A stretch of 5,076 nucleotides of DNA from a virus (taxonomy: Duplodnaviria; Heunggongvirae; Uroviricota; Caudoviricetes), in the IMG/VR virus record IMGVR_UViG_2563366883_000006; one strand, written 5' to 3'. Made by a program: the position numbers and the translations under genes. Position 1 is the stretch's first letter, and each line of letters starts with the position of its first letter. A model generated the notes under the pieces. The model saw nothing but the letters and a program-made list of their open reading frames with translations. It made no database searches and had not been told where the DNA came from. Below are positions 2,715 to 3,942 of the stretch, one piece after another.

Positions 2715-2915
2715 ATGTCATCGAAAAACCGGACCCGCAGAACCACAACCCGCAATATCCGTTTCCCCAATCACATGATTGAACAGATCAACATCGCCCT
2801 TGAGCATAAAGGATCCGGTAACTTTTCAGCGTGGGTTATTGAAGCCTGCAGGAGAAGGCTGGCAACAGATGCAACGCATCTGCGCCCGGCCAGCATGAAA
2901 AATAACGAGAAATGA
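2715..2915 (+). CDS. Small ribbon-helix-helix (Arc/MetJ/CopG-like) DNA-binding protein, 66 aa; possibly DUF3950/YlcI-like
   Basis: ATG at 2715 with SD AAGGAAA 8 nt upstream (the 2655 start in the track is a GTG extension overlapping HNH). Translation MSSKNRTRRTTTRNIRFPNHMIEQINIALEHKGSGNFSAWVIEACRRRL... has a basic N-terminus, then a beta-strand (NIRFPNHMI), helix, G-x-S/N turn and helix, as in RHH folds. The only plus-strand gene in the window. The DUF3950 assignment is from memory only. Confidence 0.6.
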   Translation: MSSKNRTRRTTTRNIRFPNHMIEQINIALEHKGSGNFSAWVIEACRRRLATDATHLRPASMKNNEK

Positions 2916-3046
2916 ACGTTCGGTTACAGGAGCAGGTACCCACTGTCCTCCAACAATATTTCATCTTCATATCCGACGGAACAAGACTTACCCTGCCGGG
3001 ATGTACAGAATAACAACAGAGTGATAATTAATTTCTGATGAAATAA

Positions 3047-3379
3047 TCAGGGTGCAGAAGGACTAAAGATAAACGTTTTCTTCACGCCTTTACACGGCCT
3101 GTCCTTCTCAAATCGCCATTTTGCCATCGCCTTTACAACCTGCTCATCAAACAAATGGTGCGGCTCTGAACGGATAAACTCAATTCGGGTGACAGTACCA
3201 TCAGCACCAATATCAAACTTCACATCAACCCGTCCCTTTATATAATTTGCCGCTGCATAGGCCGGATATTGTGGTAATGCCTTAACCAACTGTCGGGGCA
3301 TATCTGTTTTATGTTGCGTACAGCCCATAACCAGAGAAGACAACAAAATAATTAACGGAAGATTTCTTTTCATTTTCAT
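3047..3379 (-). CDS. Lipoprotein consisting of a TonB C-terminal domain (TonB_C-like), 110 aa; moron-type accessory gene
   Basis: ATG at 3379 (track start at 3388 is GTG). N-terminus MKMKRNLPLIILLSSLVMGC has a basic n-region, a hydrophobic core and a lipobox-like LVMGC with Cys about 20 residues in. The mature part ...PQYPAYAAANYIKGRVDVKFDIGADGTVTRIEFIRSEPHHLFDEQVVKAMAKWRFEKDRP... follows the TonB C-terminal signature (PQYP.A..A...G.V.VKFD...DG.V........P...F..EV..AM..WR.E). Codon usage is noticeably AT-richer than flanking phage genes (TTA ATT ATT TTG TTG TCT TCT...). Confidence 0.75.
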   Translation of the reverse strand: MKMKRNLPLIILLSSLVMGCTQHKTDMPRQLVKALPQYPAYAAANYIKGRVDVKFDIGADGTVTRIEFIRSEPHHLFDEQVVKAMAKWRFEKDRPCKGVKKTFIFSPSAP

Positions 3380-3393
3380 TCCCGGCACAGATA

Positions 3394-3410
3394 AGAATAA
3401 GTCTTATTCT
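3394..3410. promoter_or_regulatory. 17-bp perfect palindrome AGAATAAGTCTTATTCT, 15-31 bp upstream of the lipoprotein start; candidate operator
   Basis: Perfect inverted repeat around a central T, read directly from the sequence. It overlaps a weak sigma70-like -10 (TAGAAT, minus strand, 3405-3410) with a possible -35 ATGACC (3429-3434) 18 bp away. Confidence 0.3.
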
Positions 3411-3717
3411 AACAATGCCACCCTGTCGGTCATCAATCCTCTGTTTAATGGCAACGACAATTATCCGACTTAAATCACAAATCAGACACATGACATAACA
3501 GAGCTTGCGAGGTAACACATCGTCCGGTTTCTTCCACCATCGCACCGGACCAGCGACCATGAGGGGACAACGCCGCGCTCCGTTAACGCGGTAAACCCCG
3601 GTGTGTATCGTTTTTGATTATCCCCGCACACTCGCGCAGAGGAGTCTCCCGGTCGGGCTGCGGTCTCTGTTAATGCAGGAATACGGCGACAATACCGCGC
3701 ATGGATAATAAGGTCGC

Positions 3718-3942
3718 TCAACACACTGGCTGTAATGCAGCGGATACCATGCGGCATTTAGCGGCATTCATCGTACACTCAACGGTTAGCTCTTCATTCG
3801 TGGCATTCACCTGAAAGGTCCGGGAGTGTAATTGCGTACATTTACCACTGAACGAACCTTCAACAAGAACACGACCACGCTGCAAAATACGGAACGGAAT
3901 TGTTCCCTGAAAAGGCTTTACGGTTACCAGTAATTTCTTCAT
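3718..3942 (-). CDS. Hypothetical small protein, 74 aa, four Cys, no signal peptide
   Basis: ATG at 3942 with GGAG 7 nt upstream (the track's longer form starts at a TTG). It begins 23 nt after the Rz stop, on the same strand. Translation MKKLLVTVKPFQGTIPFRILQRGRVLVEGSFSGKCTQLHSRTFQVNATNEELTVECTMNAAKCRMVSAALQPVC. I recognise no family. Confidence 0.5.
   Translation of the reverse strand: MKKLLVTVKPFQGTIPFRILQRGRVLVEGSFSGKCTQLHSRTFQVNATNEELTVECTMNAAKCRMVSAALQPVC

Follow-up and report, generated by a model that had tools for sequence, protein, structure and literature searches.

The lambda bor region (Rz-bor-lambdap78/79-cos), known from the morons of Hendrix and Juhala, lies between Rz/Rz1 and the packaging genes. 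Among phage lipoproteins, Llp and Cor, both of the outer membrane, act on FhuA at its periplasmic face and block it (bioRxiv 10.64898/2026.03.26.714494). Concerning TonB itself, another article reports that overexpression of its periplasmic part inhibits TonB-dependent iron import (PMC9841981, citing Howard 2001) and that a TonB-box peptide lowers colicin killing and phi80 infection (PMC9841981, citing Tuckman 1992). Here we consider a stretch of 5,076 nucleotides of a Caudoviricetes phage (IMG/VR record IMGVR_UViG_2563366883_000006), called the window at its full length. At the same position as the lambda bor region, from Rz/Rz1 to the packaging genes, it carries three small genes: p74, the gene of a lipoprotein with a TonB C-terminal domain (TonB-C lipoprotein) and ylcI. 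A conserved non-coding block, designated SEG, separates p74 from the two others. An earlier note on this DNA had grouped the three genes into an accessory island whose members could work together, the product of ylcI for example as regulator of the cargo. In our judgment the interval is quite probably a two-slot moron hotspot arranged around SEG, whose genes assort independently and do not form one system.

Family matches, homologues, RefSeq annotation and purifying selection agree that the three genes are real and situated where the earlier note had placed them, between Rz/Rz1 and HNH-terS (Table 1). RefSeq labels them YlcI/YnfO family protein, TonB family protein and hypothetical protein, and all three are under purifying selection (ratio of non-synonymous to synonymous polymorphism, pN/pS, with Rz at 0.46 as reference). 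A prophage of E. coli SW071611 is 100% identical to the window.

Related loci were gathered with four anchors (SEG, TonB, p74 and Rz), taking the best 80 matches per search, and each locus was scored for Rz, p74, Bor, KilA-N, TonB, YlcI, YbcV, YbcW, HNH and three kinds of small terminase. The eight possible presence/absence combinations of p74, TonB and YlcI are all found among 131 distinct Rz-to-terS intervals: all three genes are present in 16, none in 15, and the other combinations occur 1 to 35 times each, proportions which the anchored best-80 sampling biases and which to that extent speak against our reading. The existence of every combination is independent of this bias, which affects the proportions alone. 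Moreover, in the samples anchored on TonB, on p74 and on Rz alike, each gene occurs both together with the others and apart from them. Counts over 5,426 complete E. coli genomes give 482 places for the TonB gene, 1,369 for p74 and 3,496 for ylcI, but only 92 genomes with the full arrangement. This arrangement, which includes p74, thus concerns at most ~92 of the 482 TonB places (~19%), compared with ~30% of SEG places occupied by p74 (1,369/4,556); there is consequently no positive association between TonB and p74. ylcI is mostly present without TonB or p74, including in K-12 DLP12 and phage 434, and the TonB gene also occurs without ylcI. The earlier note had proposed to compare the interval across related prophages: the genes are sometimes together there (92/5,426 genomes) but vary independently.

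The interval also behaves as the cargo hotspot which had been suspected. It varies from 300 bp to 3.4 kb in relatives, its gene fillings differ and its genes are not core. Variation is distributed over two slots that meet at SEG. Slot A, from Rz to SEG, is empty or holds p74 (as in the window), bor or a KilA-N gene. Slot B, from SEG to the terminase, is empty or holds ylcI, ylcI with TonB (as in the window), TonB alone, or ylcI with ybcV/ybcW. Beyond slot B, three kinds of packaging modules are found, HK97-like, lambda nu1-like and 933W-like. The window itself is a mosaic of this type. Its positions 2600-3703, comprising the HNH end, ylcI, TonB and most of the gap, are 97% identical to JLK-2012 and Stx1a (Shiga toxin 1a) phages, which carry a KilA-N gene at the position of p74. 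Positions 3522-4000, with the rest of the gap, p74 and the Rz end, are 98% identical to Stx2 phages and ASU11, in which the terminase is of lambda type and both ylcI and TonB are missing. p74 therefore stands across SEG from ylcI and TonB, in another mosaic segment. The three genes assort independently via recombination between lambdoid phages, which also exchange the three packaging modules across the same junction.

The TonB gene itself is carried by an insert. The mixed composition reported earlier is confirmed: the three genes are located in DNA richer in A+T, and the G+C content falls to 0.37-0.47 over positions 2901-3500 vs 0.55-0.62 in the flanking terminase genes and Rz. In phage vB_EcoS-569R3 the corresponding site is empty: window positions 2600-2925 and 3521-4000 are contiguous there, with an overlap of 9 bp and a single copy of the repeat which borders the module in the window (positions 2291-2346 of locus L002). 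In phages of this type, devoid of the TonB insertion, the ylcI stop directly abuts SEG. In JLK-2012 and Stx1a phages, the module adjoins a different filling of slot A. It thus combines insertion between sequences adjacent in relatives with a distinct composition; a discrete event of insertion or deletion at a short repeat, such as this one, is characteristic of morons.

Upstream of the TonB gene, a sigma-70-like promoter with an extended -10 element is predicted, which may serve this gene; its TGTnAGAAT element is retained in a 70%-identity relative, the copy of phage Perceval. A perfect 17-bp palindrome, a candidate operator, overlaps the predicted -10 hexamer (Table 1), and a degenerate copy with four mismatches is situated at 2978-2994, just downstream of the gene; both copies are found inside the TonB module only. 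A Fur box was also considered at this promoter and rejected, the best candidate (3390-3408) matching 13/19 positions, a score equalled in 93/500 shuffles of the AT-rich region. Several of these observations count against our reading of the module. Promoter-like sites in the region are no more frequent than expected by chance, and no convincing intrinsic terminator was found in 2600-4050, none in particular downstream of the TonB gene. The palindrome is present in 44/48 contexts of the TonB subtype adjoining ylcI and missing from 7 contexts of the 70%-identity subtype devoid of ylcI, a correlation which concerns two lineages only and leaves room for a link with YlcI.

This last point also speaks for a different explanation, in which the trio would be one accessory system with YlcI regulating the TonB lipoprotein, p74 or both. 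The palindrome is of the kind that ribbon-helix-helix (RHH) repressors bind, its position over the predicted -10 would suit an operator, it tracks ylcI (44/48 contexts of the ylcI-adjacent subtype, 0 of 7 without ylcI), and the trio is found together in the 92 genomes mentioned above. We nevertheless hold such a system to be very improbable. Even with up to four mismatches allowed, the palindrome is absent from ylcI phages without the TonB module, and therefore it is not a general YlcI operator; its correlation with ylcI is that of two lineages. Moreover all eight combinations occur, TonB is found without ylcI, the 3,496 places of ylcI are mostly without TonB or p74, and p74 belongs to the other side of SEG. 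Neither the regulation of the cargo by the RHH protein nor the idea of one system is thus supported; the data favour separate slots about SEG and a TonB module with a known empty site.

The TonB-C protein begins with a lipoprotein signal peptide (lipobox LVMG/C), which is followed by a linker of seven residues and by the complete C-terminal domain of a TonB. It matches PF03544 (E 1.3e-14, 54.8 bits for a cut-off of 24.6) and the C-terminal part only of TIGR01352 (54.5 bits, cut-off 27.1). TonB equivalog models are covered at positions ~152-240 only, with 49-74 bits, far under their cut-offs of 265-448. Residues 28-106 align without gap with the C-terminal domain of E. coli TonB (PDB 1u07, 2gsk_B and 2grx_C; E 4e-16 to 2.5e-15), including chains crystallised with BtuB (2gsk_B) and FhuA (2grx_C). 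Identity with E. coli TonB is 39% over TonB residues ~153-231. The YP motif and the F, G, F, W and F positions are kept; in what we take to be the numbering of TonB, these are Y163, P164, F180, G186, F202, W213 and F230, Y215 being replaced by Phe. The features of a full-length TonB are lacking at the N-terminus: there is neither inner-membrane anchor (SHLS motif) nor Pro-rich spacer, and the signal peptide stands in their place. Since the anchor coupling to ExbB/ExbD and the spacer are absent, the protein cannot transduce energy.

The lipobox, MKRNLPLIILLSSLVMG/CTQ, fits the pattern [LVI][ASTVIM][GAS]C with a residue other than Asp at +2. Its Cys is present in all full-length homologues, with T, S or A at +2, down to a Klebsiella homologue of 46% identity. 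According to the Lol sorting rule, lipoproteins with a residue other than Asp at +2 are directed to the outer membrane, and the TonB-C lipoprotein would be sorted there. The gene had been given as 3047-3379. The gene stands and its start probably not: RefSeq uses 3373, the first ATG is missing from the divergent Perceval copy, and a GGGA motif is located 7-10 nt before the second ATG, so that the true start is probably this second ATG, giving 108 residues. The gene is found in 415 E. coli genomes (~8% of those complete) with its reading frame intact, is common in Shiga toxin-producing (STEC) and enteropathogenic (EPEC) E. coli lineages and in Stx1a phages, and displays a pN/pS of 0.23 at pS 0.25. 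The PHROGs family to which it belongs (phrog_1267) is labelled "Rz-like spanin", which looks like an annotation error carried over from gene position. A literature search for a phage TonB-like lipoprotein found no paper.

On this basis we propose, with a little less than even confidence, that the TonB-C lipoprotein is a decoy tethered to the outer membrane, which would block the TonB-dependent entry of phages and colicins. The domain is complete, energy coupling is absent, and both the inhibition by TonB fragments and the lipoproteins Llp and Cor offer precedents; these are the reasons for the proposal. The lipoprotein would occupy the TonB boxes of TonB-dependent receptors and pass no energy on to them. 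TonB-dependent entry of phages such as T1 and phi80, and of group B colicins, would be damped, at some cost in siderophore uptake. Other facts pull away from the decoy. TonB Q160 is a Leu and R166 a Tyr in the phage protein, whose specificity of TonB-box binding may thus differ from that of TonB. No PADLOC protein model matches YlcI, TonB-C or p74 at E <= 0.01. Finally, if the decoy acted on all TonB boxes, the host too would be short of iron, a reason to expect either tight control of the gene or another role of the protein.

Such a different role could be that of a Bor-like fitness or virulence factor of the lysogen, acting on the envelope, serum survival, iron uptake or one receptor. The gene lies in the same region as bor and likewise encodes a small, presumed outer-membrane lipoprotein on AT-rich inserted DNA; it is frequent in STEC, EPEC lineages and Stx1a phages, and further virulence-type genes are found in this prophage, those of a protease of the SPATE type (serine protease autotransporters of Enterobacteriaceae) and of a YadA-like adhesin. 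Unlike Bor, the protein contains a complete TonB C-terminal domain, whose sole known activity is TonB-box binding, and Bor and TonB are found together in some phages, so that they are not simple alternatives. We regard this role as rather unlikely. That the gene would be an inert fragment of host tonB produced by illegitimate recombination is hardly credible, even if it covers only the C-terminal third of TonB and if the Perceval copy was annotated by its depositor as partial TonB ("TonB fragment"). It has acquired a lipoprotein signal peptide, its lipobox is kept across subtypes down to 46% identity, and its pN/pS of 0.23 at pS 0.25 contradicts inertness. With only 39% identity to E. coli TonB the capture is old, and the frame is nonetheless intact at 482 places.

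The second element, SEG, is located in the gap of 338 bp between the TonB start and the p74 stop. The earlier note saw there about 330 bp devoid of credible open reading frame (ORF), which is correct: the mechanical ORFs 3309-3560 and 3482-3757 have no significant family match, and 1-nt indels among homologues break their frames. Yet the gap is not a plain spacer, as it contains the conserved 181 bp of SEG, made up of invariant stretches flanking a hypervariable, hairpin-rich one of ~45 nt. SEG occurs at 4,556 places in 1,911 of the 5,426 complete E. coli genomes, with up to nine copies per genome, and is never annotated there. It is also present in 398 phage records, including 434, VT1-Sakai, VT2-Sakai and 933W-type Stx phages. 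In lambda, a degenerate copy whose core contains indels lies at 46,862-47,033, between bor and lambdap78; in K-12 DLP12, a partial copy is found between bor and ybcV. SEG was found in 60/61 Rz-anchored loci, a sample unselected for SEG, as well as in 131/131 distinct Rz-to-terS intervals. In every locus examined, and across the three packaging types, it is the junction between the slots. Its distribution is restricted to Escherichia and its phages; the core pattern was met elsewhere only in contigs labelled Candidatus Nanosynbacter, Thiomicrorhabdus and a metagenome-assembled genome of soil Proteobacteria (loci L012-L016), which are most likely contaminations of assemblies by E. coli phage.

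SEG could be either a recombination linker at the boundary between lysis and head modules or a cis element. In the second case it might act as a structured RNA of the late transcript, as a small RNA or 3' untranslated region on the ylcI strand, or as a protein-binding site. Its near-universal presence downstream of this Rz family (60/61) points in this direction, as do the invariant stretches around a hypervariable one, which is swapped for unrelated sequences while hairpin formation is kept. One stem shows a compensatory change (TCCGG/CCGGA to TCCTG/CAGGA). Furthermore, pairwise divergence is 0.070 in SEG vs 0.119 at four-fold degenerate sites of the adjacent Rz, mild evidence of constraint. 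On the opposite side, the minimum free energy of folding is no better than that of shuffled sequences (z 0.49 and 0.11 for the two strands), so that a stable structured RNA was rejected, and RNAalifold gives a weak consensus on both strands. In a hand-built model of five stems, only 3/25 pairs change on both sides, and the wobble evidence conflicts between strands. A search with Rfam 15 over 2700-4000, whose library includes Esr41, AgvB, AsxR and STnc100, returned nothing at E <= 1, and thus no known small RNA (sRNA). The lambda copy is degenerate with core indels, and recent exchange could account for the conservation of SEG, an element restricted to Escherichia phages. A functional cis element is therefore a possibility that we hold as real but clearly below even.

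Two other roles were considered for SEG and set aside. A coding function was rejected on account of mini-ORFs that are not conserved, frames broken by 1-nt indels and long ORFs without significant family match. In the Stx1 phage NC_004913, RefSeq names an ORF over SEG (B85, L009 1295-1540) "Rz-like spanin", which looks like an annotation error. As for a bor promoter or PhoP site, a perfect PhoP box, TGTTTA-GGGTT-TGTTTA (TGTTTA-N5-TGTTTA), was observed in K-12-type DLP12 (L006 3162-3178), in keeping with the regulation of borD by Mg2+ and PhoP. This box lies outside SEG, between SEG and bor, which shows that in these sequences the bor promoter is part of the bor module and not of SEG. Nothing relevant to transcripts of the bor region was found in the literature.

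For ylcI, the assignment to the DUF3950 family is firm, with 71.8 bits (E 4.2e-20, cut-off 25) against PF13132 and 35.3 bits (cut-off 30) against NF041551 (NCBIfam YlcI_YnfO_N). The earlier call of an RHH protein stands for the family gene and less firmly for the fold: YlcI is probably an RHH DNA binder. Residues 1-50 are near-invariant across phages with differing neighbours (pN/pS 0.11 at pS 0.43), and the C-terminal tail is hypervariable, its last 15-45 residues being unalignable and of varying length. RHH proteins whose head binds DNA and whose tail binds a partner typically show such a constrained head and variable tail. No partner gene for YlcI is evident, and the literature on ylcI/ynfO gave nothing relevant.

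p74 has 66 homologues, all from E. coli or Salmonella. Its AlphaFold model is all-beta (pLDDT 90.9), suggesting a small cytoplasmic beta-sandwich protein without signal peptide, and its pN/pS is 0.42. The start of p74, preceded by a GGAG, is 23 nt past the stop of Rz, so that p74 can be read as an accessory gene of the late operon.

Late genes of the window are all on the minus strand, in the order lysozyme (to 5039), a small ORF, Rz/Rz1, p74, the gap, the TonB-C gene, then ylcI on the plus strand, followed by HNH, terS and terL (Table 1). The packaging module is HK97-like, terL being followed by the genes of the major capsid protein and portal in the RefSeq context. Between terS and HNH (2068-2212), GTTAACAT is repeated six times vs 0.12 expected by chance, together with a 23-bp unit repeated 2.5 times (2085-2141) and a palindrome, CAGTTAACATGTTAACTG; this is probably the terminase recognition or cos region of the HK97-like module. 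Between the lysozyme gene and Rz, a strong terminator-like hairpin (4647-4679, late strand) consists of a 15-pair stem and a T-run. The adjoining ORF 4435-4587 represents one more small variable insertion in the lysis cassette. The prophage in NZ_CM129855.1 (2,884,000-2,914,500) adjoins the trp operon and a truncated ompW. It apparently lacks most tail genes between head-completion genes and tail tip, and its tail region, checked for a Cor gene or a clue to the receptor, is partly deleted and uninformative. Past its tail fibre genes are found the S6-family (SPATE) autotransporter protease and the YadA-like adhesin.

Table 1. Features of the Rz-to-terminase interval and its flanks, in window positions (a dot means that no strand is assigned)
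Feature	Position	Strand	Basis or remark
terS	1430-1993	-	Pfam Terminase_2
HNH endonuclease	2308-2673	-	Pfam HNH; fixed flank, packaging side
ylcI, 66 aa, YlcI/YnfO (DUF3950)	2715-2915	+	Pfam, NCBIfam; same coordinates in RefSeq SW071611 prophage
9-bp near-direct repeat, left copy CGTTCGGTT	2917-2925	.	Occupied vs empty site, vB_EcoS-569R3
AT-rich TonB moron module, ~604 bp counting one repeat copy	2926-3520	.	Between ylcI stop and SEG
TonB-C lipoprotein gene	3047-3373 (108 aa) or 3047-3379 (110 aa)	-	Pfam TonB_C
Perfect 17-bp palindrome AGAATAAG-T-CTTATTCT, candidate operator	3394-3410	.	Overlaps predicted -10 hexamer
Sigma-70-like promoter, predicted: ATGACC, 16-nt spacer, TG-n-TAGAAT (extended -10)	3406-3433	-	Consensus scan
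9-bp repeat, right copy CGTCCGGTT, overlaps SEG start	3521-3529	.	Occupied vs empty site, vB_EcoS-569R3
SEG, 181-bp non-coding block, constant junction of two cargo slots	3522-3702	.	Homologue alignments
p74, 74 aa	3718-3942	-	66 homologues; AlphaFold model
Rz i-spanin	3966-4433	-	Pfam Phage_lysis E 3e-50; fixed flank, lysis side
Rz1, embedded in Rz	4028-4213	-	Pfam Rz1 E 1.5e-19

A plausible three-gene island thus appears as three unrelated passengers in a familiar lambdoid moron hotspot, which is the bor site in lambda, and therefore it should not be catalogued as a system. What is new here is modest: a candidate TonB-box decoy lipoprotein without literature, and a conserved junction block left without annotation. 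If the decoy reading is true, one small gene would shield the lysogen from many phages that depend on TonB, as well as from group B colicins. It predicts a general block of TonB-dependent entry, simple to assay by plating. SEG sits where lambdoid phages exchange their lysis and head modules, which makes it a candidate for the long-postulated linker sequence of modular phage evolution, or for a cis element. That the lipoprotein represents a new class of factors for phage exclusion or immunity and, separately, SEG an undescribed functional element marking the lysis/packaging boundary is a broader proposal, which we put forward only tentatively.

Compared with known systems, the closest likeness is with lambda. 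The lambda bor region and the window both carry SEG, and the window cargo, like lambda-type morons, has its own orientation and a lower G+C content and is inserted between sequences adjacent in relatives. Contents differ, with p74, the TonB-C lipoprotein and ylcI in the window vs bor, lambdap78 and lambdap79 in lambda; packaging is HK97-like (HNH and terS) vs nu1/A, and the TonB moron is devoid of detected terminator. Window ylcI belongs to the same family as YlcI/YnfO of the K-12 prophages DLP12 and Qin and is similarly placed and oriented: it precedes the terminase genes and is read against the late operon. It differs by its C-terminal tail and by its neighbour, HNH and not nohD/nu1. SEG shares with prophage sRNAs (Esr41, AgvB, AsxR, STnc100 and Pas RNAs) the status of conserved non-coding DNA in lambdoid prophages of the same strains, whereas it has no match to their Rfam models and no folding signal. 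Moreover, Pas RNAs as described map near the Q and holin genes, and SEG downstream of Rz.

The TonB-C protein has in common with the C-terminal domain of E. coli TonB the YP motif and the aromatic core. It differs from TonB by the loss of the inner-membrane anchor and Pro-rich spacer, which a putative outer-membrane lipid anchor would replace. The nearest functional parallels are the exclusion lipoproteins Cor (phi80, HK022, N15, mEp167) and Llp (T5), and for the TonB-C lipoprotein, too, we propose that it would act at the periplasmic face of a TonB-dependent receptor and disable it. Its complete TonB C-terminal domain gives it a different fold and origin, and homology with Cor or Llp is unlikely, judging from family and PDB matches, which are all to TonB. 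The proposed target differs as well, the TonB box of all TonB-dependent transporters compared with FhuA alone for Cor and Llp. Finally, genes of the Cor/Llp type are located in the tail region, whereas the TonB-C gene stands beside the lysis genes.

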